Source of the DNA: Flavobacteriales bacterium
GTDB lineage: Bacteria > Bacteroidota > Bacteroidia > CAIKAF01
Reading direction: 5' to 3'
Assembly: GCA_044376575.1 (NCBI GenBank)
Contig: JBILKR010000006.1
Span: 24,211 to 88,210, forward strand
DNA length: 64,000 bases
Shown here: piece by piece, positions 1,027 to 29,663 of the stretch
How positions within the stretch are numbered: position 1 is the first letter of the stretch
Layout: each line of letters opens with the position of its first letter
The notes under the pieces: model-generated
What the model was told of the DNA's origin: nothing
Databases searched by the model: none
What the model saw: the letters and a program-made list of their open reading frames with translations, nothing else
Made by a program: the position numbers and the translations under genes

Positions 1027-2093
1027 TGCCAGTGAACGAAGTATGGGATGAGTCAGAAGAAACCGGCAATGATGACCTTTACGAACATCATCGGTTTATT
1101 GTAGATAAAGGACAAGATTTGCTGCGTATTGATAAGTATCTGGGTTATAAATTAGAAAAAACATCACGCAACCGCATCCAAAAAGCAGTAGAAGCCGGAG
1201 CCGTAGTAGTAAATGATAAACCGGTAAAAAGTAACTATCGGGTAAAACCAAGAGATGTGATTTCGATTGTATTTGCACATCCACCACATTCCAATTTACT
1301 TGTTCCGGAAGAAATGTCATTAAATATCATGTATGAAGATGCAGATCTGCTGATTATCAACAAACCTGCAGGGCTGGTAGTTCATCCGGGACATGGAAAT
1401 TACTCAGGCACACTGGTGAATGGTTTGTTATATCATTTACAACAACTACCTGTTGCTTCTCATGAAAAATCAGGACCACTTGACGAAATTCGACCGGGCT
1501 TAGTGCATCGCATCGACAAAGACACATCGGGTTTGATGGTGATTGCAAAAAATGAAATTGCAATGACATTGCTGGCCAAACAATTTTTTGACCGCACCAT
1601 TCAACGAAAATATATTGCACTGGTATGGGGAGATGTGAAAGAAAATGAAGGCAGAATTGAAGGAAATATCGGCAGAGATAAAAAAGATAGAAAAGCCATG
1701 GCTGTCTATCCCGAAGGAGATGAAGGGAAACACGCGGTAACTAATTATAGAGTTATAGAACGATTCGGATTTGTTACACTGGTAGAGTGTAAACTGGAAA
1801 CCGGAAGAACTCATCAGATTCGTGTTCACATGAAACATATCGGACATACACTGTTTAATGATGATCGATATGGCGGAAAAAAAATATTAAAAGGAATTGA
1901 ATCGGCGAAGTACAAACAATTTATAGAAAATTGCTTTGAAATGATCCCCGGACAGGCACTACATGCAGCCACTTTGGGTTTTATACACCCCACCACTGAA
2001 AAAGAATTGTTTTTCGAAGCAGCACCTCCGGAAGGATTCAAGTTGTTAATTGAAAAATGGAGAAACTACAGCAAATCGATATTAAAAGTGTAA
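1026..2093 (+). CDS. rluD: RluA/RluD-family 23S rRNA pseudouridine synthase with an S4-like N-terminal domain.
   Basis: The catalytic motif HRIDKDTSGLMVIAKN is present, an S4-like segment precedes it, and the length is 355 aa. The start overlaps the upstream stop (TAATG). Confidence 0.8.
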   Translation: MPVNEVWDESEETGNDDLYEHHRFIVDKGQDLLRIDKYLGYKLEKTSRNRIQKAVEAGAVVVNDKPVKSNYRVKPRDVISIVFAHPPHSNLLVPEEMSLNIMYEDADLLIINKPAGLVVHPGHGNYSGTLVNGLLYHLQQLPVASHEKSGPLDEIRPGLVHRIDKDTSGLMVIAKNEIAMTLLAKQFFDRTIQRKYIALVWGDVKENEGRIEGNIGRDKKDRKAMAVYPEGDEGKHAVTNYRVIERFGFVTLVECKLETGRTHQIRVHMKHIGHTLFNDDRYGGKKILKGIESAKYKQFIENCFEMIPGQALHAATLGFIHPTTEKELFFEAAPPEGFKLLIEKWRNYSKSILKV

Positions 2094-2106
2094 ATTATAC
2101 ACTTTG

Positions 2107-2769
2107 TTACATGTCTATAAAATTCATCAGCTGACGAAAACGGTCATTCATATCATCATCCTGACTTGTTTCCATGAATAATCCTTTAATTGTGTAATTA
2201 TAACGAGAGAATGTAGCAATAATTGCCCGCAAATCTGTTCTGTTTAATTTTAACACTACTTCTATTTTAGTAGATTCAGGGATGGTATTGATGTAACTAC
2301 TTAAAATTTTACAATCGTTACTTTCCACGATATGTGCAATCTGAGAAAGATTATAATCTCTTTCATTGAGCTCTAATACAAGAATAGCTCCCGGATCTTT
2401 AATAGAAGATAATTCTGCGAGTTTTTTAACCAGATCAGTAATTGTAATGATGCCTAAATAATTTTCTTTATCATCGAGTACAGGCACCAGCGATAAATTC
2501 ATTTGCGCAACTACGCGTATCACTTCATAAATGTGCTGGCTTGATTTTACATACGGCTTGTAAAGAGACAGCCGATGATTCCCCAATGGCTCTTCGGGAG
2601 AATTCAGATTAAAAATATCCTCTTCAGAGATTACTCCCAGCAGTTCCTGATGGTTTACAATAGGTAAATGAGAGATGCGAAATTCTTCCATCCATGCCAT
2701 CGCTTTCAACCCACTATCTGATGTTTTTAATGGCGGGATTTCATTTGAAATGAGTTCTTCAGCAATCAT
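2107..2769 (-). CDS. CBS-domain pair protein.
   Basis: 220 aa with two CBS-like repeats (HLPIVN...LLGVISEEDI and LVPVLDDKENYLGIITITDLVK). Confidence 0.55.
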   Translation of the reverse strand: MIAEELISNEIPPLKTSDSGLKAMAWMEEFRISHLPIVNHQELLGVISEEDIFNLNSPEEPLGNHRLSLYKPYVKSSQHIYEVIRVVAQMNLSLVPVLDDKENYLGIITITDLVKKLAELSSIKDPGAILVLELNERDYNLSQIAHIVESNDCKILSSYINTIPESTKIEVVLKLNRTDLRAIIATFSRYNYTIKGLFMETSQDDDMNDRFRQLMNFIDM

Positions 2770-2879
2770 AATTCTGCACTTTCTTTTTTTCTAAACGCTA
2801 TTTTAACTTATTTCGTTGTCCGTAAATATATTTATTAAAACAAAAGAGCACCTCTGTTGGTTCTTAAAAAACATCAAAC

Positions 2880-3599
2880 ATGATTAAACTTAGTGTAAAT
2901 ATCAATAAAGTAGCAACACTGAGAAATGCCCGAGGCGGGAATATTCCTAATGTTCTACAGGTAGCACTTGATTGCGAACGGTTTGGTGCCGATGGAATTA
3001 CAGTTCATCCCAGGCCAGACCAGCGTCACATTCGATATTCTGATGTTGTTGCATTAGCTCCGGTATTGAACACAGAATTTAATATCGAAGGAAACCCAAC
3101 CCCTGATTTTATTGATTTAGTAAAAAAAATAAAACCGGCGCAAGTTACACTCGTTCCCGATGCTCCCGATGCCATAACATCTAACGCAGGTTGGGATACG
3201 ATAAAGTTTAAAGATTTTCTGAAAGAAGTAATTGCTGAATTTAAAAAAGAAAATATTCGCACTTCTATTTTTATTGATCCTAAAGAAAATATGGTTGAAC
3301 ACGCTGCGGAAACAGGTGTTGATCGTATTGAACTATATACTGAAGCTTATGCCAGTGAATATTTTAATGATAGAGAAAAAGCAATTTCTCCTTATATAGC
3401 AGCTGCAAAATGCGCCAATAAGGTAGAACTTGGAATTAATGCAGGTCATGATTTGAATGCAGACAATCTGCATTATTTTGCATCAAAGATTCCCGGATTG
3501 CTTGAAGTATCCATCGGACATGCTTTAATTGCAGATGCATTGTATTTCGGACTGGAAAATGTTGTTCAGATGTATAAACGAAATTTGATGATTGATTAA
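2880..3599 (+). CDS. pdxJ: Pyridoxine 5'-phosphate synthase.
   Basis: The N-terminus [20 protein letters not shown] and the segment [16 protein letters not shown] are characteristic of PdxJ. Length 239 aa. Confidence 0.9.
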
Positions 3600-4362
3600 G
3601 ATGAAATTATTTTTCAGAAAATGGGGAGAAGGACAACCTCTTTTTATTTTACATGGATTATTTGGTACCGCAGATAATTGGAACACTCTGGCTAAAACTT
3701 ATGGTGAAAAATACTGCACGTATGCCATTGATTTGAGAAATCATGGCCAATCGCCACACAGTGAAGAATGGAGTTATGCCCTGATGGTTGAAGACATAAT
3801 AGAATTAATGAAGGACGAAGGATTAGAACACATCCATTTGATGGGACATTCAATGGGAGGAAAAGTTGCGATGTTTATGGCCTGTAAATACCCTCAGTTG
3901 ATTGACAAATTAATTATTTCAGATATTGCACCCAGATATTACCCGGTGCATCACACAGAAATTATTGATGCACTTCATTCTGTACCACTTCATATTATTT
4001 CTTCAAGAAAAGAAGCAGAACAAATACTTGAAAAGAAAATTTCAGATGTTGATATCCGACAATTTTTATTAAAAAATTTATATTGGAAAGACGAGCGGCT
4101 GGCTTGGCGTTTTAATCTTGATGTAATCAGCAGTAACATCGAAGAAGTTGGTAAAGCACTTGAACAAGAAGATCGATTTGAAGGCTATACATTATTTATT
4201 CGAGGAGAAAAAAGCAATTACATTTCGATTCAGGATGAAATAGAAATTCAACATCATTTTCCCTACAGCAAAATAATAACTATTGTGAATGCAGGGCATT
4301 GGGTGCACGCAGAAAATCCTAAAGAATATTTAACTGAAACAATTCATTTTCTAAACAGTTAG
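3592..4362 (+). CDS. Alpha/beta-hydrolase fold esterase (YbfF-like).
   Basis: HGLFG oxyanion motif and GHSMGG nucleophile elbow. There is an 8-nt overlap with pdxJ. Confidence 0.75.
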
Positions 4363-4459
4363 CATAGTATTTTTCCTATTACCAAATCGTTGTTTTTCTA
4401 TTTTACATTTTTTATTTATTATTTCTTAGTATTAATGCTAAAATATATTGTAGGAAAAT

Positions 4460-4467
4460 TAATTTTG
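4460..4467 (+). promoter_or_regulatory. Possible Bacteroidetes sigma-A -7 element (TAnnTTTG) upstream of the 4491 gene.
   Basis: TAATTTTG lies 24 nt upstream of the ATG. I did not find a convincing -33 TTG at the expected spacing. Confidence 0.2.
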
Positions 4468-4490
4468 CAGCTTGAAAAAAAATACTGCAA

Positions 4491-6293
4491 ATGACCAAAC
4501 CAATCTATTTTTCAACTTGTTTCTTCTTTTTTTTATTGGTGTTACAGACTGATTTCATTTATTCAAATAACATTCAGGTAACCAACGTAACGCTTACATC
4601 ACAAAACACATCTGCAGGAGCAAACAACAGCGCTAATTATACCCATATTCAATTTGATGTGCAGTGGGAAAATTCCTGGAGATTATCCTCCGGTCCATCA
4701 AACTGGGATGCCGCATGGATATTTGCAAAATTCAGGGTGGGTGGATCCGATCCACAGTTTAGTAATGTGAGTAGCAGTGGTACAACCGTTACCGTAAGCA
4801 GCACTTCTCAGCTTAGGGTAGGAATGCCTGTACGTGTAACCTCCGGCACAGGAACACTTGTTACCAATACTACCATTTCAAGTATTACCAACAGCACTCA
4901 ATTTGTTGTTAGCAATACTCCAACTGTTGCATTGCTTAATGCTACAATTATTTGTACTAGAGTCTGGGAGCATGCCTGGCTTAATAATTCAGGGCATACA
5001 GCAACAAGTGGCACAACCATTTCAAATGGACTTGTAACACCATCGTCTTCATTTAACGCTACTACCAATCCTGTAATTGGTATATTTATATATAGAGATG
5101 CAAACGGAAGCGGAACATTTAATGGAACCGGAACCACCCTTCGCTGGAACTATGGTGCCCATGGAATAAAAGACAATCAGATTGTAGATGTAAGAGTTTA
5201 TGGTATTGAAATGGTATATATTCCACAAGGAAGTTATAGTGTAGGCGATGGCTCTGTGACCAGTGTAGCAGGAAACTTCAGGGATGGCGGTAGCAATATC
5301 CCATTTTTAATTAGTAGTGAGGCCGCAATAACATTGGGAGGAACAACCGCTGGCAACTTAGCCAATAACAATAATAGCGGAATGCATACAGCAGATGATT
5401 TTAATAATACAACAACACAAAATCTTCCTGCAGAATTTCCAAAAGGATACAATGCATACTATTGCATGAAGTATGAAATTTCACAACAACAATGGATTGA
5501 TTTTTTTAATACACTGATTCCACGCCAAAAAACTACTCGTGATATAACTTTTAATAAAGGAACCGATGCTTTGCATTATTCCAATAATAATGTCAACTGG
5601 GACGCAACCAATACATTTTCAGATGCTACGCTCAATAATGGCACTTATGGTAATACCGCAATGACTTGGCTTAGCTGGGCTGATTTTGCGGCATACCTGG
5701 ATTGGGCGGGATTACGGCCAATAACAGAATTGGAATACGAAAAAATATGTCGCGGAACACAAACACCTGTCGCAGATGAATATCCATGGGGAACGAATAC
5801 GATTTATACAATATCGGCGCTTAATTCTTATTATTCTATCAGCAATGAAGGGGAAGCCAATGAAGGTATTTCAGCCAATTACAGCACTACATCCGGGAAT
5901 GCACATTATGGAATAGTTTATAATTATGATGGGGTGAGACGAGTAGGTGTGTTTGCAGCCAATGCCAGCAATACAGGAAGAATTACCTCCGGAGCAAGTT
6001 ATTACGGATTAATGGAGTTGGCTGGTAATGTTTTTGAACGCACCATTTCTGTTGGCAGATCAGAAGGACGATCATTTACCGGAGCACATGGAAACGGGGC
6101 TCTTACTAGCGCTGGTGATTACAATGTAACAGGATGGGGATCTACCTCTGGTACACAATCCGGTGTTCGAGGTGGTGGATACGATGACATCTCATCCCGT
6201 TTAAGAGTATCAGATCGATACCTTGCATCAAGCAGTGCATTGAGTGCCGGAGGTTTTAAAAGTGGAGGAAGAGGAGGAAGAACGGCTCCGTAA
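4491..6293 (+). CDS. Secreted protein with an N-terminal S/T/N-rich beta-rich region and a C-terminal FGE-sulfatase (SUMF1/formylglycine-generating-enzyme-like) domain.
   Basis: Signal peptide MTKPIYFSTCFFFFLLVLQ. The FGE-like core starts at MVYIPQGSYSVGDGS, contains YPWG, and ends with RGGGYDDISSRLRVSDR (RGGSW-type). The C-terminus is a Gly/Arg-rich tail (GGRGGRTAP). Confidence 0.6.
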   Translation: MTKPIYFSTCFFFFLLVLQTDFIYSNNIQVTNVTLTSQNTSAGANNSANYTHIQFDVQWENSWRLSSGPSNWDAAWIFAKFRVGGSDPQFSNVSSSGTTVTVSSTSQLRVGMPVRVTSGTGTLVTNTTISSITNSTQFVVSNTPTVALLNATIICTRVWEHAWLNNSGHTATSGTTISNGLVTPSSSFNATTNPVIGIFIYRDANGSGTFNGTGTTLRWNYGAHGIKDNQIVDVRVYGIEMVYIPQGSYSVGDGSVTSVAGNFRDGGSNIPFLISSEAAITLGGTTAGNLANNNNSGMHTADDFNNTTTQNLPAEFPKGYNAYYCMKYEISQQQWIDFFNTLIPRQKTTRDITFNKGTDALHYSNNNVNWDATNTFSDATLNNGTYGNTAMTWLSWADFAAYLDWAGLRPITELEYEKICRGTQTPVADEYPWGTNTIYTISALNSYYSISNEGEANEGISANYSTTSGNAHYGIVYNYDGVRRVGVFAANASNTGRITSGASYYGLMELAGNVFERTISVGRSEGRSFTGAHGNGALTSAGDYNVTGWGSTSGTQSGVRGGGYDDISSRLRVSDRYLASSSALSAGGFKSGGRGGRTAP

Positions 6294-6298
6294 AATGT

Positions 6299-8035
6299 AT
6301 GAATTGTATGTCTTTAAAATTTAATATTACTTATCTTCTTTTTTATTTTACTGCGGCTGTTTCATCTATTGCCCAAAATGAGCCATATCTCGGTGGCAAT
6401 GGGAGGGGTGATGTAGCAACACAATTGAGTACGGAATATCTTGATGGCACAACAGCTACTCCATACAGATTAAATTTCTTTAACCAGCCCCCTCCAACTA
6501 CTTATATTGGCAATACCTTCAACTGTAATGTTGAGATCATTTATACGGATTCAACACGGGTAACTACTGCTTCCAATGCAATAACCCTCTCAATTGGGTA
6601 TAATCCCGGGAACAGTACTCTTTCCGGCACTGCCGTTCTAAATGCAACAAACGGGCTGGCAAGCTATACCGGATTAGGATTAAATAATCCCGGAACTGAT
6701 TATACATTGACAGCATCTGCTTCAGGATTTTCAAATATTACATCCCATCCGTTTGATATATATTCAAATATTTATTTAGGAGGTGTCGGACGAGGTGATG
6801 ATGTGGATGATACAAACGCAACCCTACTTGGCAAAAATGCATGGGTAAGCACCACTACCACAGACTGGGCTACTACTTCAAATTGGATGCATGACCAGAT
6901 TCCGGCTCATAACGAGAATGTATTAATTGCAGAATGGGCCACAAAAAATTTACATCTAGATCAATCACGCACCATCAGAAATTTAGATTTTAATCATGTA
7001 GGTCTGAAAGTAGTTCTTAATGACGTTGACCTTACAATTACAGGAGATATTACTTCTGCTGATGCTAGCAATTATATTCGATCAAACGGTACGGGAAATA
7101 TCAAGCGAACAGTAAATCAAAGTCAAGCATTAGAATTTCCCATCGGGAACAGTACTTACAATCCATTAACCATAACCAATAACTCAGGATCCTCTGATTT
7201 ATTTTCAGTTCGTGTTTCAGATCAGATTGAATTCCCTACTTCCTTTTTATCGCTGGCTTCTTATGTAAACCGAACCTGGAATATTTCGAAAGCAAATCCC
7301 AATGGTGGTCCCGGCGTTGATTTAATTTTCAACTGGAATGATCAGGAAGAAGTAGGTACACTCACTATCCCTGTATTAAATCACCATAACGGATCAGTAT
7401 GGGAAGTGGCCAGTCCTGGAACTAACACGTCTTCATTAAACACTTTAACCTATACCGGATATACCGGAAGTTTTTCTCCTTTTGCCATTGCAGATCAAAA
7501 CACTCCCCTGCCCGTAGAACTGGATTATTTAATCACCACATGCCATCAATATCGTCCCGTTATTCAATGGCAAACTTTTAGCGAAATCAATAACGATTAT
7601 TTTTTGATTGAACAATCAGATGATCAAAATACATGGGAAAAATTAGATATAATTGATGGTGCCGGGAACAGCAATCAAATGATTGCGTATCAATTTGAAT
7701 ATACAAAACCACTTGATGCAACTCTTTACATTCGTTTAAAACAAGTTGATTATAACGGAACAACTGAAATCATCGGAACAAAATCATTGATACCGTGCGA
7801 TGATGAAAGTAACATCCAGGTTTATCCTAATCCTACGCATGGCGAAATTCACTGGAGCGGATTCGATGCGCTCTCTTCAATATCTATTATCAATCAATTT
7901 GGAATAACGGTTTCAACTTTTACCTCATCTGCTGATGGTAACGGATCGGAAATAATCTCTGTATCACCCGGTGTTTATTATATTCAGGGAATAAAAAACA
8001 AAACGATAACAACTGAAAAACTTATTGTTTACTAA
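6299..8035 (+). CDS. Secreted protein with T9SS type-A C-terminal sorting domain, probably co-transcribed with the 4491 gene (5-nt gap).
   Basis: Signal peptide (FYFTAAVSSIAQ). The C-terminus IQVYPNPTHGEIHW...GVYYIQG...KLIVY matches the Por_Secre_tail pattern. It has two copies of a GG-x-GRGD motif. Confidence 0.6.
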   Translation: MNCMSLKFNITYLLFYFTAAVSSIAQNEPYLGGNGRGDVATQLSTEYLDGTTATPYRLNFFNQPPPTTYIGNTFNCNVEIIYTDSTRVTTASNAITLSIGYNPGNSTLSGTAVLNATNGLASYTGLGLNNPGTDYTLTASASGFSNITSHPFDIYSNIYLGGVGRGDDVDDTNATLLGKNAWVSTTTTDWATTSNWMHDQIPAHNENVLIAEWATKNLHLDQSRTIRNLDFNHVGLKVVLNDVDLTITGDITSADASNYIRSNGTGNIKRTVNQSQALEFPIGNSTYNPLTITNNSGSSDLFSVRVSDQIEFPTSFLSLASYVNRTWNISKANPNGGPGVDLIFNWNDQEEVGTLTIPVLNHHNGSVWEVASPGTNTSSLNTLTYTGYTGSFSPFAIADQNTPLPVELDYLITTCHQYRPVIQWQTFSEINNDYFLIEQSDDQNTWEKLDIIDGAGNSNQMIAYQFEYTKPLDATLYIRLKQVDYNGTTEIIGTKSLIPCDDESNIQVYPNPTHGEIHWSGFDALSSISIINQFGITVSTFTSSADGNGSEIISVSPGVYYIQGIKNKTITTEKLIVY

Positions 8036-24169: not shown

Positions 24170-25027
24170 TTGTTTATAATATCATCATCTATGAATGCTT
24201 CCTTTACTTTTAAGTCTGCTGACGGTATAAATATACAGGGCTATACAGGTGAGCCAGCATCAACGCCGGTTGCGGTAATTGCATTATTGCACGGCATGGG
24301 AGAACATGCCATGCGTTACGCGCATGTTGCAGATTACTTCAATCATCAATCCATTGCTTTTACAGCCATGGACCACAGAGGGCATGGCAAATCAGAAGGG
24401 CAGCGGGGACATTCGCCAAGTTTAGATGCCTTACTCAACGACATTGAATTGTTTATTACAAAAACAAAAGAATTGTATCCGGGTATTCCTGTCATTTTAT
24501 ATGGACACAGCATGGGTGGCAATGTAGCTTTAAACTTTATTTTGAGGAAAAAACCACAACTTGCCGGAGCTATTATTACAGGTCCATATCTCCGATTAGC
24601 ATTTAGTCCACCGGCTTGGAAAACAACATTAGGAAAAATCAGCGCACGTATTATTCCAACACTTACGCAACCTACCGGTCTCGAAACAGCAGCTATCTCA
24701 AGAGATACAGATGTTGTAAAGAAATATGAAAGCGATACGCTGGTGCATGATAAAATTACATCTTCGTTTTTCGTAAGTGTTCATTTCGCCGGTCCATTTG
24801 CAATTGAACATGCTGCTGATATAACATTGCCAATGTTGATTATGCACGGTGGTGCAGACCGACTTACTTCCTGCGAAGCAACCAAAGAATTTGCAGCACG
24901 TGCTGATAAAAATGTTGAATTAAAAATTTGGGAGGGGTTATACCACGAAATTCATAACGAACCGGAAAAAGATGAAGTGCTCAACTATGAATTAGGGTGG
25001 ATTAAACGAACAATTCTTTCACATTAA
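24170..25027 (+). CDS. Alpha/beta hydrolase (lysophospholipase/monoacylglycerol-lipase-like).
   Basis: LHGMGEH and GHSMGG motifs, plus a catalytic His near the C-terminus (YHEIHNE). Confidence 0.75.
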   Translation: MFIISSSMNASFTFKSADGINIQGYTGEPASTPVAVIALLHGMGEHAMRYAHVADYFNHQSIAFTAMDHRGHGKSEGQRGHSPSLDALLNDIELFITKTKELYPGIPVILYGHSMGGNVALNFILRKKPQLAGAIITGPYLRLAFSPPAWKTTLGKISARIIPTLTQPTGLETAAISRDTDVVKKYESDTLVHDKITSSFFVSVHFAGPFAIEHAADITLPMLIMHGGADRLTSCEATKEFAARADKNVELKIWEGLYHEIHNEPEKDEVLNYELGWIKRTILSH

Positions 25028-25818
25028 ACTTCTTTGTAAACCCGCTTTGCGATGAGAATACTCAATTCATACAACCCCATCAAGGGGATTGCTACCAGTA
25101 TTTGACTGGCCACATCCGGAGGCGTAATAATGGCTGCCAAAAACAAAATGATAATAATGGCATGTTTTCGATACTGCATTAAGAAAGCAGGAGATACAAT
25201 CCCGGTCTTTGCTAAAAAGTAAATGACTACAGGGAGCTCAAATAAAATACCGCAACCTAATACAACGGTGAGAATGGTTGATATATACGAAGTAAATGCA
25301 GGAGTGTTGCTCACCTGCTCCATTACATCATAATTCCCTAAGAAATTAACGGTTAAAGGTGCCAAAAGATAATATCCAAAACCTATTCCCATCATAAATA
25401 AAATGGATATATAAAAAACGATACCTGTAATTTTCTTTTTTTCATCCGGATGCAATGCCGGTTTAATGAAGCTCCACATTTCCCATGCAATATATGGGAA
25501 TGCTACAACAAAGCCGGCAATAAATGATCCCCACAGATGCCATGTAAATTGTGCCCCCATATCCAGGCTGACAAAATTTGTAAAAGGTAATGCTCCAAAA
25601 CACAGCGCATCGATCCCCAGAAATTTACCTAATGAACAAAACCATTTATAGGTGATAAAATCCTCTTGAGCTGGTGCGAAGATTATATTATCAAAAAGAA
25701 TAGAAGGAAATATGAAGGCAATAATAGCCACAACAAGCACAGCAATAATAGAACGCATGATGTGCCATCTCAATTCTTCAAGATGCTCAAGAAACGACAT
25801 TTCTTTATCTTCACTCAT
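25024..25818 (-). CDS. tatC: Twin-arginine translocase subunit TatC.
   Basis: MSFLEHLEELRWHIMRSIIAVL followed by a 6-TM profile. Length 264 aa. Confidence 0.88.
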   Translation of the reverse strand: MSEDKEMSFLEHLEELRWHIMRSIIAVLVVAIIAFIFPSILFDNIIFAPAQEDFITYKWFCSLGKFLGIDALCFGALPFTNFVSLDMGAQFTWHLWGSFIAGFVVAFPYIAWEMWSFIKPALHPDEKKKITGIVFYISILFMMGIGFGYYLLAPLTVNFLGNYDVMEQVSNTPAFTSYISTILTVVLGCGILFELPVVIYFLAKTGIVSPAFLMQYRKHAIIIILFLAAIITPPDVASQILVAIPLMGLYELSILIAKRVYKEV

Positions 25819-25819
25819 C

Positions 25820-26536
25820 TTATTCGATTAGAATTTGTCCGCCAAGCGAATAGTTCTTTGAAAAATTTCCGGCTGGTAATTGACGATAATAAATCTTTCC
25901 GCCTGATACCGCTTTTGCATCAAATTGCTGAGAAGGGCTTATCCATACTTTTGCTCCAAGGATTGATTTCACTGTAGCATCAGTACATACCAACTTTTCC
26001 ATTTTTACTTTAGAACCGGAAGAGGCATCGATATTAACCACTTCTGATTTCCCGGATACATATACATCAGATCCCTGACCGGCATACACAGTTATTTTTT
26101 TAGTATTTACAAGCAGATTTGTAAACCCATCAAGATTGGCGTCAATGATTAATTCATTTGAATTCAATTCAATATCACATTTAGCCAAACCACCAAACGT
26201 GGGTGTTATTTTTACAATCGGCTGAGTGTAATAAAGAATCGCTTTTATATCTGCATCATTTAAAATTCCTTCTGTTTTAATCACGAATTCATCATTTATA
26301 ACCGATGTAACGATCTTTTCGTTCATGATGTTTTTAGGAAAAATTTCAATCTTATTTTCCTGAGCGGGAATAAGTGTTACAGTGATATTATCAGATACTT
26401 TTACTTTGGTAAATAGAGTAAGATTTCTTGTTTCCTGAACCTGAGCGCACAAAGAAGAAAACATAAAAATCTGAACCAGTACTATAATAATCCTTGCTAT
26501 CATTTGAATGCGTAAAATTAATGAAAATATTAACAA
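25820..26536 (-). CDS. Secreted DUF2807/GIN-domain-like protein (putative adhesin-head-like beta-helix).
   Basis: Signal peptide, then repetitive segments of the form V.V.GSG.V...(SGKSEVVNIDASSGSKVKM, KAVSGGKIYY). The start is possibly at MIARIII (26503). Confidence 0.45.
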   Translation of the reverse strand: MLIFSLILRIQMIARIIIVLVQIFMFSSLCAQVQETRNLTLFTKVKVSDNITVTLIPAQENKIEIFPKNIMNEKIVTSVINDEFVIKTEGILNDADIKAILYYTQPIVKITPTFGGLAKCDIELNSNELIIDANLDGFTNLLVNTKKITVYAGQGSDVYVSGKSEVVNIDASSGSKVKMEKLVCTDATVKSILGAKVWISPSQQFDAKAVSGGKIYYRQLPAGNFSKNYSLGGQILIE

Positions 26537-26564
26537 CGCATCAGATGATGAAACACGCTAATTG

Positions 26565-26669
26565 TTATTGAATAATCATTCCAATAACAGCAATAACTGT
26601 CATGGCCACAACAATAGATAAAATAATATAAGCAAACATTTTTCCTATGCCAGCAAAACAACCACCCAT
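26565..26669 (-). CDS. Possible 34-aa hydrophobic single-TM microprotein. It is not in the ORF track because it is under 60 aa.
   Basis: My own translation is MGGCFAGIGKMFAYIILSIVVAMTVIAVIGMIIQ. It starts 1 nt after the stop of the upstream 51-aa ORF. Confidence 0.3.
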   Translation of the reverse strand: MGGCFAGIGKMFAYIILSIVVAMTVIAVIGMIIQ

Positions 26670-26670
26670 A

Positions 26671-26826
26671 TTATTTATTTATCTTTTTTAAAATCTTGCC
26701 AGCAATTTTCCCTGTGATACGATTTCTAACTCGCTTCACAATATTTCCTTTAGCCACGGCATCCACATCACCTAAAATTTTAGCAGTAGAGTACAAGCTC
26801 CTTCTAATTTTACTTAATAGTCCCAT
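26671..26826 (-). CDS. Possible 51-aa polycationic microprotein. It is not in the ORF track.
   Basis: My own translation is MGLLSKIRRSLYSTAKILGDVDAVAKGNIVKRVRNRITGKIAGKILKKINK. Its ATG overlaps the TAA of the upstream lipoprotein gene (TAATG). Confidence 0.3.
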   Translation of the reverse strand: MGLLSKIRRSLYSTAKILGDVDAVAKGNIVKRVRNRITGKIAGKILKKINK

Positions 26827-27992
26827 TATTTGTCAATTCTATCAAACGGATCATATTTACCCAAATGAAATATCTTACGTATCCATGGTAATTCATCGTA
26901 CTGATATTTCTGAAGTAATTTTTTATTTCCTTCAATTTCAGCCTTGGTTTCCATTTCATCTTTGTGTTTCAGGTAATCAAAATTCATTACTACAGAATCT
27001 TGTTTGAACTGATCCAGTTTATTAATTCGATCCACCTGATCTTGATACTTTTTCATTTCAAATTCCCAGTCACGTTTTGCTTTTGGATTTAATTTTTTCA
27101 AGTATGCCTGATAGATTTTTTCAGCTTCTGAATAACAAGAAGATTGTTGATCAATTAACATATAATATGACATGGCTGCTTCATTAAATCCGGAAGCAGA
27201 AGGGTCATTCGCCTTTCCTAACTCTGCTTTCATAGACGCCAAAATACTTTGGCAATTTGTATTTAGAGATAGCTGAAAATACTCTGCTTTCTTATTCATT
27301 GCCTGGTCAAAGCAGGATTTTGCTTCTATTGGAATGTTATTTAAGATAGTGTAAGCTGCATCATATTTCCTCATTTTTGCTTCTGAATCAGCCTGTTGTA
27401 AAAAGCTATTACAGTTTGATTCATAGAATTGAGCAATTTTATCTTGAGTCTTTTTTAAGAAATCATAGAATTCTTCGTTGTCAAAATTAAAATCCCGGAA
27501 TCCTTGAATAAACGCTTTATCCGGACTATCTCCCACGCCTTTAACTGTAAAAGTATACGAAGCAAAAATGGTTTCTGTAACAACATCCGCAGATAATAAT
27601 GTTACTTCGTAAGTATTCGCATACTTTGTGGGTGCTGTTCCTGTTAAATTTTTGGAAAGCAAATTAATGTCTGGGCCAATAATAAAGCGTGGATTTGCTC
27701 CATCTCCGCCAAAACCAACTTTTGCTACTGCAGCATTGATTCTTGTGGAAAGTATTTGTCTTCCGGATGCTCCCAAATCCGGATAATCAGGAACAAATGG
27801 GGTAAGCTTTATAGACAATTGTAAATCTGTTATTGCGCTACCAGACGAAGACTTACTACCGGACGCATCTGTACTTTCTTGCTTGGTAAACGCACCTTCT
27901 TCATTTTTTCCTTGAGTTAAGGGATCTTCTTTTTTAGTACAGGAGAATAAAACAAAGATCGTTCCGATGATTAGCAGGTTAATTTTTTTCAT
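26826..27992 (-). CDS. Lipoprotein of unknown function (start placed at MKKINLL, lipobox ...LFSC).
   Basis: The ORF extends to 28082, but a signal peptide plus lipobox Cys begins at internal Met 31. The rest is a Cys-containing helical region with no recognised domain. Confidence 0.5.
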   Translation of the reverse strand: MKKINLLIIGTIFVLFSCTKKEDPLTQGKNEEGAFTKQESTDASGSKSSSGSAITDLQLSIKLTPFVPDYPDLGASGRQILSTRINAAVAKVGFGGDGANPRFIIGPDINLLSKNLTGTAPTKYANTYEVTLLSADVVTETIFASYTFTVKGVGDSPDKAFIQGFRDFNFDNEEFYDFLKKTQDKIAQFYESNCNSFLQQADSEAKMRKYDAAYTILNNIPIEAKSCFDQAMNKKAEYFQLSLNTNCQSILASMKAELGKANDPSASGFNEAAMSYYMLIDQQSSCYSEAEKIYQAYLKKLNPKAKRDWEFEMKKYQDQVDRINKLDQFKQDSVVMNFDYLKHKDEMETKAEIEGNKKLLQKYQYDELPWIRKIFHLGKYDPFDRIDK

Positions 27993-28009
27993 TTTAATAA
28001 ATTCAATTT

Positions 28010-28519
28010 TTACTTCACTATTTTTTCGTAATCGGCTATTTTTTTTAACAACAATTTTTGCTGGGTTTCTTCCTTTTTCCAATCACGAGTATCACTTTCA
28101 TTCCAGCCTTCTACATTCCTTAAATCAGATGCCTTTAATGCCCATTTCTTGGCTGATTTATAATCTTCTTTTTCTAAGAAATTATTAACTGCCATCTCTA
28201 TAACTACATACTTTGCTTTTTCTTTTTCATGGTCGTAATAGTTTGTATGGCTTGCTTCATTAATCACATTCAATGCCGCATCAAATTCTCCATTTTTTGC
28301 AAGATATATGCTTTCTGCTTCTGTTATCTTTTGCAGATGTGAGTATGCTCCCAATGATTCATCTGCTGCCATATAAGCTCTTGCCGCCACAAAATCATAC
28401 TTTGAAATACAATCGTCTACGTTTTCACAATCGTACTTGGCTTCAGGCTTTGGAGTTTCTTTTTTTCCACAAGAGAAAAGAAAACCAATACTTAACAGAA
28501 TTAAAATAATTTTTTTCAT
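28010..28519 (-). CDS. Small lipoprotein of unknown function (helical).
   Basis: MKKIILILLSIGFLFSCGKKE is a lipoprotein signal. Length 169 aa. Confidence 0.5.
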   Translation of the reverse strand: MKKIILILLSIGFLFSCGKKETPKPEAKYDCENVDDCISKYDFVAARAYMAADESLGAYSHLQKITEAESIYLAKNGEFDAALNVINEASHTNYYDHEKEKAKYVVIEMAVNNFLEKEDYKSAKKWALKASDLRNVEGWNESDTRDWKKEETQQKLLLKKIADYEKIVK

Positions 28520-28533
28520 AAGAGGTATATTAA

Positions 28534-29547
28534 TTACTTAGTACCTTCAATCACAACCATAGCATCGCCAAGGCTTTGTGTTTTATTTTTTACATTTAGA
28601 CTACATCCTTTCTTCATGGCTTTAGATAGATTCTTAGCAAAATCATAAGCCGTGTACTTTTTACCATCTTCTGTTTTTGCAAATATTCTTACGTTAGTAA
28701 AATACATTTCGGTAGAAGTATTTTTTACCATTTTAAAAGACTGATTTACTGTATTATCTTTCAACCACTCATTAATTTTTTCTCCTATTTCTGTATCACC
28801 ACAATCATCATCTATCTTAACATCACCCTCTTTTTTAGTTGCAACGCGTAAAGTAATTTCAATTCCGTTGGCTAATAAACCGGCAAAATGAGATGTGATT
28901 TGTGTTTTCATATCCCCTATGCTTGACGGGAAGTCTTGTTTAATCAAAGAAGGGATGTCGTTTTCTTTAGATTCTTTGCCAACATTTGCCTTTGAAACTG
29001 AGGCTACAGCTTTATTCGTATATACATCCAAGCATTTTGCAGAATAGGTTACTGACTTATTTAAGTTTCTGCTGGACGGATCAGATTTTAATTCATAATC
29101 TAATTCTACTACATAGTCAGGACGTGCTGTATTTAATAATTCAGCACGCATATCACGTGCAATATCATCCATTTCATCCATTGCATTATTATTAGCAATC
29201 TGTTTTAATTGCTGTTCTAAATCTTCCATTGGGAATCCAGCCTTGGCAAATTCTTCCTGAATAGCAGCTACAGCAAATTTCAAGTCAGGATTTTTAATGA
29301 AAGCTTGCTGATAATTTCTTTCATATGCAACTGTTCCCTGATTTTCCACTTCCTTTAAAAAGCCCATTCGAAGCAACATCGCATCCGATGGCAATACCAT
29401 TATAGTAGGCATAGACTGGCTAAGGGCATTGGCTTCAACCTTAGCTGCCTCTACTTGACCATCTGTGGGCATTAATCCATCAGACTTTTTTTCTCCTCCA
29501 CAAGAAAACAGAATAAAAACGACTAAAATGAATGGAATTTTTTTCAT
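28534..29547 (-). CDS. Lipoprotein of unknown function.
   Basis: MKKIPFILVVFILFSCGGEKK is a lipoprotein signal with the start placed at MKKIPF. No recognised domain. Confidence 0.5.
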   Translation of the reverse strand: MKKIPFILVVFILFSCGGEKKSDGLMPTDGQVEAAKVEANALSQSMPTIMVLPSDAMLLRMGFLKEVENQGTVAYERNYQQAFIKNPDLKFAVAAIQEEFAKAGFPMEDLEQQLKQIANNNAMDEMDDIARDMRAELLNTARPDYVVELDYELKSDPSSRNLNKSVTYSAKCLDVYTNKAVASVSKANVGKESKENDIPSLIKQDFPSSIGDMKTQITSHFAGLLANGIEITLRVATKKEGDVKIDDDCGDTEIGEKINEWLKDNTVNQSFKMVKNTSTEMYFTNVRIFAKTEDGKKYTAYDFAKNLSKAMKKGCSLNVKNKTQSLGDAMVVIEGTK

Positions 29548-29607
29548 AACAATAGTTAACATGTTTATAGATTGATAATATTAAATCAAAAATAATTTTT
29601 TTTTAAT

Positions 29608-29640
29608 AAAAACAAAAAAAGCCTTGCAATTGCAAGGCTT
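29608..29640 (-). terminator. Rho-independent terminator downstream of coxI (minus strand).
   Basis: Perfect palindrome GCCTTGCAATTGCAAGGC, followed on the minus strand by TTTTTTTGTTTTT. Confidence 0.75.
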
Positions 29641-29663
29641 CGTTGTTATATATTCAAAGAAAA

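Follow-up and report, generated by a model that had tools for sequence, protein, structure and literature searches.

Profile similarity places a 51-residue cationic protein at the end of a Flavobacteriales lipoprotein operon in a large, phage-borne family of predicted helical hairpins

The tail-completion protein of phage 80alpha, which belongs to the HK97 gp10 / lambda gpZ class, lies in the neck lumen with a positive surface turned towards the DNA end (PMC11661146). Here we describe a 51-residue cationic protein (the 51-mer) whose closest known relatives, judged by sequence, are terminal modules of proteins of this class, and we found no description of these modules. It is encoded on the minus strand of a 64,000-nucleotide stretch of a Flavobacteriales bacterium assembly (GCA_044376575.1, contig JBILKR010000006.1; hereafter the window), where its gene and a following open reading frame (ORF) for a 34-residue hydrophobic peptide (the 34-mer) occupy positions 26,565 to 26,826. 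In proteins of the tail-completion class (lambda gpZ, HK97 gp10, SPP1 gp16.1 and 80alpha gp51; phrog_222 and phrog_5) the same module, LY..AK.LGD..A...G...R...R..G, stands once or twice at the C-terminus, and sometimes as a half-copy at the N-terminus. Unlike these proteins, the window peptide is the bare module without a core. It has no match in PHROGs (the one family match there, a weak one, is that of its relative P0002 to phrog_29913, E 0.0056) and lies in a chromosomal lipoprotein operon, away from any cluster of virion genes.

Other described systems recall single features of the locus. Leaderless class II bacteriocins of the aureocin A53 and lacticin Q type are, like the 51-mer, about 50 residues long, leaderless, strongly cationic and all-helical, with a small membrane-peptide gene sometimes next to theirs; small transmembrane immunity peptides are common beside such genes. 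The 51-mer differs from them in having no sequence or profile similarity, two helices in place of a compact multi-helix bundle, no tryptophans, no export genes and a phage-borne spread across phyla. The C-termini of MinD and FtsA are membrane-targeting amphipathic helices and offer a work-alike only: members of our family end in ..GKLFK, ..RKLFK or ..RLWR, mixing basic with aromatic or hydrophobic residues, and in the window peptide the hydrophobic moment reaches 0.72-0.74 over the final 11 residues. Unlike the MinD and FtsA tails, this helix is integral to a conserved 50-residue hairpin with invariant structural residues, and its membrane binding is putative. A true Pmp3/YqaE protein (PF01679, E 8.9e-10) takes the exact slot of the 34-aa ORF at one related locus (L016), with no gap after the family gene; the 34-mer itself has one hydrophobic stretch only, fitting a single transmembrane helix, and gave no PF01679 match in Pfam. 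Finally, the 388-aa protein encoded immediately upstream of the 51-mer shares a lipoprotein signal, an alpha/beta N-domain and a multi-lipoprotein operon with the CsgG / PelC / GNA1162 (DUF799) / LptE class, from which it is set apart by low template-modelling (TM) scores, an extra long helical C-terminal half and the lack of a sequence-family match.

The size of the family behind the 51-mer emerges only from exhaustive searching. A word-indexed protein search found one relative, and phmmer against 1.84 billion cluster representatives returned 135 at E<=1e-3, two of them repeat-protein false positives; the best E-value, 1e-10 against 1.84e9 proteins, leaves chance as no explanation. A profile of 61 stand-alone members (A1) retrieved at least 1,848 clusters, counted at 90% identity, from sources that include Bacillus, Novibacillus, Dethiobacter, Ignavibacteriales, Planctomycetes and Candidatus Hakubella, and every named cluster is a 'hypothetical protein'. 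In the window, the family hidden Markov model (HMM) matched the 51-aa ORF at 81 bits (E 2e-24) and nothing else. The closest homologue of the 51-mer, P0002, is 68% identical to it, and about 70% of residues are shared between members of different phyla. On these sequence grounds the 51-aa gene is a real, full-length member of a very large unnamed family, cross-phylum and phage-borne. This goes beyond the earlier sequence-only reading of the locus, which had presented the two ORFs as an unannotated, translationally coupled pair suggestive of a membrane-active peptide and a small membrane partner.

Pfam, NCBIfam and PADLOC scans of both peptides and of the 61 family members gave no match, a sequence-profile search of the PDB gave no chain at E<=10 beyond noise, and Foldseek of the hairpin against the PDB and BFVD gave zero matches. 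Literature text searches, with motifs such as LGDVNAV and locus tags, found no paper on the hairpin family or on DUF6175, the domain encoded at the head of the operon. The family is nonetheless already databased. Both small genes have been called on eight public contigs of this freshwater species (NCBI GCA_964384755.1 is among the sources), and each peptide has an entry as 'hypothetical protein' in a public protein collection. The word 'unannotated' thus fitted the ORF track supplied to the sequence-only reading and fails for the public calls, and the 51-mer ORF is no new sequence; what we did not find is a name, model, structure or publication for its family.

The family consensus reads xxIxKxRxxLYxxAxxLGDVxAVxxGxVxxRIxRRxxGKxxGxxLxKxxx. 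D20 and R32 are invariant, R8, Y12, G19, A23, R36 and G39 are conserved in at least 90% of members, and all eight signature residues are found in the window peptide. Net charge across the family runs from +9 to +16 (median +12), and the window peptide, with 14 K/R and 2 D, indeed carries the charge of about +12 first attributed to it. AlphaFold2, given a 61-sequence alignment, predicts an antiparallel two-helix hairpin with helices 3-26 and 29-50 (mean predicted local distance difference test score, pLDDT, 91.6). The column profile explains this prediction: small residues recur at positions 15, 19 and 23 of helix 1 and at 30, 34, 39 and 43 of helix 2, and helix 2 is a four-residue repeat of basic, hydrophobic, small and any residue, with basic positions 28, 32, 36, 40, 44 and 48 and hydrophobic positions 29, 33, 37, 41, 45 and 49. 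In the model, small-xxx-small ridges (A15-G19-A23; G39-G43) together with D20 and R32 would hold the hairpin. The amphipathicity earlier thought likely is seen in the C-terminal 11-mer and not globally, since the 18-residue moment of 0.56 was reached by 538 of 2000 shuffles; with an overall amphipathicity no higher than in shuffled controls and a predicted rigid hairpin, a membrane-active peptide finds no support.

Across seven homologues of the 51-aa gene, nonsynonymous divergence (pN) was 0.20-0.34 and synonymous divergence (pS) 0.66-0.91, giving pN/pS of 0.22-0.47, and dN/dS was ~0.1-0.2 where dS was finite, values that show purifying selection on the reading frame.

The module is not confined to small proteins. 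Among the 135 module-bearing representatives, 78 are at most 70 aa long and 57 longer; in the longer ones the module lies at the extreme C-terminus in 42 and is present in more than one copy in 12. The multi-copy proteins are phage tail-completion/Neck1 proteins of the HK97 gp10 class that match phrog_222 or phrog_5 with E down to 4e-36. Six tail-completion proteins (P0028, P0034, P0043, P0075, P0078 and P0103) combine a half or near-full N-terminal copy with a full copy near the C-terminus, an arrangement that would bracket the tail-completion core with cationic helices. A second fusion group consists of long Lys-rich marine-phage proteins that start MKxFKxFYE...VEVEGLP and carry C-terminal copies. 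Stand-alone copies, annotated as hypothetical, occur in the Bacillus phages PM1 (ORF28) and vB_BteM-A9Y, and a single core-family query led to 50 IMG/VR contigs on which neighbouring genes include those for large terminase, portal, tape-measure protein, endolysin, holin, DNA ligase and a CI-type repressor. One locus (L103) is a prophage-like region carrying a family member, and the contexts at 80 metagenome loci are otherwise heterogeneous. Most of the hairpin family is found in monoderm bacteria and their phages; gene order and codon-level conservation show the Bacteroidota copies to be chromosomal and syntenic, with purifying selection acting on them. Read from these sequences, the module is used in three modes: as a free phage or prophage gene, as a terminal module of tail-completion proteins, and as the last gene of a Bacteroidota lipoprotein operon. 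Apart from these fusions, P0016 (105 aa) joins an N-terminal family module to a Cys-containing segment that recalls a recurrent domain of unknown function and has no Pfam match.

The third of these modes is the one seen in the window, where the following features were located.

26671..26826, minus strand: 51-aa gene, seen as an ORF and supported by the family HMM, phmmer, the AlphaFold2 hairpin and pN/pS of 0.22-0.47 over 7 homologues
26565..26669, minus strand: 34-aa gene, an ORF for a probable single-pass membrane micro-protein, lineage-restricted
26826..27992, minus strand: 388-aa lipoprotein gene, its product having an N-domain that resembles the CsgG/PelC/LptE/GNA1162 class and a helical C-terminal part
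28010..28519, minus strand: 169-aa lipoprotein gene, an ORF with the Cys motif C..VD.C...YDF, conserved operon member
28534..29562, minus strand: DUF6175 lipoprotein gene (Pfam PF19672, E 5.8e-65), head of the operon
29618..29641, minus strand: terminator-like hairpin after the COX1 gene, with a perfect 10-bp stem, 5 GC pairs and a T-run
25820..26503, minus strand: DUF2807 gene (Pfam PF10988), public start at 26503
25818..25024, minus strand: tatC, 1 nt past the DUF2807 gene

Both ORFs are present with the translations originally quoted for them, on the minus strand, which had been left unstated. In order of transcription the operon comprises the DUF6175 gene, the 169-aa Cys-motif lipoprotein gene after 14 nt, the 388-aa lipoprotein gene after a further 17 nt, the 51-aa gene and the 34-aa gene. 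The stop codon TAA of the 388-aa gene (26828..26826) overlaps the ATG of the 51-aa gene (26826..26824) as TAATG, and the single base 26670 separates the 51-aa stop from the 34-aa ATG, so that both junctions are as the sequence-only reading had described them. The gap between the 388-aa and DUF2807 genes is 322 nt, where that reading had counted 290 unexplained nucleotides, and the two small ORFs leave 61 nt of it, between the 34-aa and DUF2807 genes. Both ORFs look genuine and tightly packed, as had been argued from their coupling, and the 51-mer is certainly a conserved protein. Strain DNA compared at seven loci was identical over the region in six and differed at six bases in the seventh, where two changes are synonymous in the 51-aa gene and one produces V21L in the 34-mer.

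Comparison with related operons identifies which of these genes belong together. Searching with the 388-aa protein found 176 homologues, of which every one with a named source is from Bacteroidota, and the family has no Pfam model; AlphaFold2 (pLDDT 76) gives the protein an alpha/beta N-domain and a long helical C-terminal half, and Foldseek matched only the N-domain, to CsgG (4uv2), PelC (5t11), GNA1162 (4hrv) and LptE, with a probability of ~1 at TM scores of 0.15-0.46. In L099/L100 the operon runs DUF6175, 183 aa, 388 aa and then a 51-aa gene 53% identical to that of the window; in L104, DUF6175, 391 aa, a 207-aa lipoprotein and a 48-aa family gene (HMM 86 bits); and in L105/L106, DUF6175, 202 aa, 197 aa, 376 aa and a 53-aa family gene (HMM 79 bits). 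The gene list of the P0263 contig (JGI 3300059473) gives DUF6175, 256 aa, a 392-aa lipoprotein, 34 aa, 49 aa and a KAP NTPase; the 34-aa ORF here apparently stands ahead of the 49-aa gene, the reverse of the window order. Homologues of the 169-aa lipoprotein lie directly 5' of the family gene, which we also call the 50-mer gene, in L016, L017 and L104, and are duplicated in L105. The link between lipoprotein and 50-mer was strict in the five further operons examined. The exception is L107, which has a DUF6175 head, ends in a non-homologous cationic 59-mer and continues with a Castor/Pollux-type protein (Castor_Poll_mid); at 5.5 bits the 59-mer was dropped as a family member and is a positional analogue only. 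The DUF2807-tatC pair follows only in the window species and is missing from the other operons examined. By this comparative gene order the hairpin gene has a conserved place, the last, in a lipoprotein operon of Bacteroidota, and DUF2807 and tatC form no part of the conserved module.

Two further proposals about these genes were abandoned. Homology between DUF6175 and the 388-aa protein was dropped when it proved that their signal peptides alone align. A programmed frameshift joining the module to the 388-aa lipoprotein was rejected, as the 50-mer follows varied genes at gaps of 0-11 nt and has its own conserved N-terminus. In an uncultured Bacteroidales metagenome-assembled genome (CAKZZD010000002.1; L018:4995-6446) a 49-aa ORF without a stop runs into a 434-aa lipoprotein ORF (..LLKKLG-MVAVVLLLGACGG..); either the two are naturally fused, or a stop has been lost, or the assembly is at fault.

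What follows the hairpin gene in Bacteroidota is repeatedly a membrane protein, of a kind that varies between loci. Besides the Pmp3 of L016, a 63-aa ORF with two transmembrane segments follows in L022, a 179-aa protein with two in L105, and an Ion_trans channel in L012-L015 and L018, with a lipoprotein before the channel in some loci; neighbour sequences read by eye suggest the same lipoprotein-then-channel order in L054. In L017 a 38-aa single-pass ORF lies 60 nt downstream of the family gene (P0006) and is the sole homologue of the 34-mer detected among the loci compared. The small membrane partner proposed earlier is therefore often found in Bacteroidota relatives, and the pair is still not a conserved module, since L099/L100 and L104 have no transmembrane ORF. 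The window pair appears from these gene neighbourhoods to be a local form of a looser habit in Bacteroidota of placing a membrane protein after the hairpin gene, and no conserved two-component module. A small-membrane partner for the whole family was considered and dropped for lack of enrichment.

The Bacteroidales operon of L012 (positions 1578-7529; also L013-L015 and L018) deserves separate mention. It encodes OmpA-like, TerB-like and Lys-rich basic proteins (89, 115 and 86 aa) ahead of a 49-aa hairpin protein, and after it, in addition to the channel, which is 600 aa long, a 97-aa transmembrane protein and DUF4230 proteins, with no PADLOC match. L018 also encodes a 167-aa protein whose AKKP tail was read as histone-H1-like.

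The best explanation overall, which we hold tentatively and at somewhat less than even confidence, is that the product of the hairpin gene is a polyanion clamp, with the membrane peptide as an optional partner. The 51-mer would stay in the cytoplasm because it has neither a signal peptide nor a hydrophobic segment. Its identity of about 70% between phyla points to a universal, probably polyanionic ligand, and the protein may act as a clamp, docking through its positive charge on a polyanionic surface. As to which surface at this locus, we lean, with less assurance again, towards the cytoplasmic face of the inner membrane or membrane proteins in preference to nucleic acid, because membrane proteins repeatedly follow the gene in Bacteroidota and because the C-termini (..KLFK, ..RLWR) resemble membrane-targeting helices. 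The 34-mer would then be an optional, exchangeable local partner or anchor and not an obligatory second subunit.

Several points weigh against this explanation. The failure of global amphipathicity to exceed shuffled controls sits poorly with a membrane surface. Outside Bacteroidota the contexts of the family are heterogeneous, and a small transmembrane ORF within 100 nt downstream is not enriched there (2/57 against 7/165, and 2/39 against 39/501 controls). By analogy, the tail-completion fusions point at least as well to contact with DNA, and in L012 and L018 the gene stands beside Lys/Ala-rich proteins read as histone-H1-like. The other products of the operon are exported lipoproteins, beyond the direct reach of a cytoplasmic protein. 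As for the partner, the 34-aa ORF is predicted and its translation putative, its pN/pS is about 0.97 against the L017 homologue, its only one, and a transmembrane ORF is missing after the 50-mer in the orthologous operons L099/L100 and L104.

Some of these points favour the alternative that the 51-mer is a phage-derived small nucleic-acid-binding protein, of DNA or possibly of RNA or the ribosome, whose basic stripe would lie on phosphate backbones, with the 34-aa ORF functionally unrelated and the operon placement reflecting co-regulation or a historical insertion. Net charges of +9 to +16 with arginine specifically conserved at 8, 32 and 36 would suit such a ligand, as would identity across phyla of about 70%, which fits something as universal as DNA. 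The module is carried in one or two copies by tail-completion proteins, a class that in 80alpha faces the DNA end (PMC11661146), and this neck location is a hint that the phage-fused copies may touch DNA; the C-terminal copies on long Lys-rich marine-phage proteins and the histone-H1-like neighbours in L012 and L018 tend the same way. Searches of Pfam, the PDB and predicted folds, on the other hand, brought up no known family or structure that binds DNA or RNA, and the conserved Bacteroidota context is one of envelope lipoproteins and membrane proteins, not of genes for DNA metabolism. Moreover, 17 of the 51 residues, about one third, are hydrophobic, which exceeds what a two-helix hairpin can bury. 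We consider nucleic-acid binding at this locus a serious though on balance unlikely alternative to the membrane-facing clamp.

A different objection concerns the 34-mer only, namely that the 51-aa gene alone is real and the smaller ORF a chance frame in a T-rich spacer that carries signals for DUF2807-tatC. The conservation check proposed with the sequence-only reading, which succeeded for the 51-mer, lends weight to this in giving the 34-mer a pN/pS near 1 against its sole homologue. The spacer is 44% T on the coding strand, and T-rich sequence readily encodes hydrophobic residues; the pairing does not exist at family level, and the family gene is followed by no transmembrane ORF in L099/L100, in L104 or after P0002 (L001/L002). 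In the ~770 nt 3' of P0002 (L001:346-1118, L002:190-960) no ORF exceeds 72 aa and Rfam gave no match. Chance nevertheless accounts badly for an ATG placed 1 nt past the preceding stop. When the 167-nt spacer was shuffled, 1.7% of the shuffles contained an ORF of 34 codons or more whose ATG lay within 12 nt, and just 0.4% had one that was also transmembrane-like. The frame is unbroken in 8/8 strain contigs, with the one V21L variant among them, and its likeness to the L017 38-mer goes beyond composition: the alignment score of 55 was reached by 0/5000 composition-preserving shuffles, and C, GK, Y, I, V, M and I are shared. At three other Bacteroidota loci another small membrane-protein gene fills this slot, and scans of the spacer revealed neither an Rfam family nor a terminator. 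The 34-mer is hydrophobic from residue 11 to residue 33 (mean Kyte-Doolittle value 2.7), in keeping with the single transmembrane helix attributed to it from the start, and its sole, weak NCBIfam match is to a DUF1328-like model (18.6 bits against a cut-off of 73). We think it doubtful that the frame is spurious; on sequence comparison the 34-mer is probably a real, lineage-restricted membrane micro-protein.

A bolder version of the clamp would make the 51-mer a phage-disseminated universal polyanion clamp recruited in Bacteroidota to regulate or plug, from the cytoplasm, small proteolipids and ion channels (the 34/38-aa transmembrane peptides, Pmp3 and Ion_trans). We regard this as improbable. 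If true, it would tie the lipoprotein operon to the control of membrane potential and define a new class of channel-modulating micro-proteins of viral origin.

The remaining readings, a ring cargo, a bacteriocin and a type I toxin, are each highly improbable, the bacteriocin because its defining features were looked for and not found. That the 51-mer is the cargo or plug of an outer-membrane lipoprotein ring of CsgG/PelC type encoded upstream draws on the fold matches of the 388-aa N-domain, on the TAATG overlap of the two genes, and on the strict lipoprotein-50-mer link in five further operons (with the unrelated cationic 59-mer in L107); PelC rings funnel a cationic polymer. Such a cargo would have to leave the cytoplasm, and the 51-mer lacks a signal peptide, the RR that it carries at 8-9 is unconserved with no h-region after it, the fold matches have low TM scores, and most family hosts are monoderm and have no such lipoproteins; we give the idea very little credence. 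A Tat substrate was rejected for like reasons, R at position 9 being present in just 12/61 members and K16, D20 and D22 falling in the would-be h-region. A leaderless bacteriocin-like peptide with the 34-mer as its immunity protein, suggested by the likeness in size, charge and helicity to aureocin A53 and lacticin Q, is equally far-fetched, given no bacteriocin Pfam match among the 61 members, no solved-peptide match at E<=10, two helices without a Trp core, neighbours that are lipoproteins, DUF2807 and TatC with no exporter or ABC transporter gene nearby, a partner gene that is mostly absent, a diderm host that offers the peptide no obvious exit route, and a module that is fused to virion proteins and ~70% identical across phyla, neither of which fits a strain-level weapon. 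A type I toxin-antitoxin reading of the 34-mer is no more credible, the ORF starting 1 nt after another gene in an operon with no known Rfam RNA in 25500-28500, although an antisense RNA of an undescribed kind would escape such a scan. The toxin-like or phage-shock-like system first offered as an example likewise found no Pfam, NCBIfam or PADLOC match, and a phage-shock (Psp) assignment is not supported, Pfam and NCBIfam giving no PspA, PspB, PspC, PspD or PspG match for either peptide or their neighbours. The PADLOC scan of the operon proteins contained nothing significant, its Cas8a line for DUF6175 (E 0.0065, 14 bits) being read as noise.

Nothing in bacterial and phage genomes is as poorly annotated as the small proteins, and here a 51-codon ORF stands for a family of at least 1,848 clusters with a confidently predicted minimal fold. 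The three usage modes supply concrete handles for finding its ligand. Should this be DNA, the family would bear on the way in which the genome end is held in phage necks and let go; should it be the membrane or a channel, it would bear on the regulation of membrane proteins by micro-proteins. The hypothesis of a pair is weakened, and it is the family behind the 51-aa ORF that merits experimental attention. For annotation, we recommend that the 51-aa gene be kept, and the 34-aa gene too, flagged as lineage-specific.

The surroundings of the two small genes yielded a few minor observations. An Rfam scan of positions 25500-28500 and of L001/L002 gave no match, so that an antisense structured RNA, named with the sequence-only reading as an outcome that would overturn it, is not supported. 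A 103-aa ORF on the plus strand (26696-27007), opposite the 51-aa gene and the final part of the lipoprotein gene, has the look of a shadow ORF of these conserved minus-strand genes. A sigma-70 promoter scan showed no excess over shuffles, the sigma-70 model being unsuited to Bacteroidota, and a terminator scan found none inside the lipoprotein operon, the spacer included. The hairpin after the COX1 gene is likely the upstream boundary of the operon; this palindrome (29618-29641) has T-runs on both sides and scores as a terminator on either strand.

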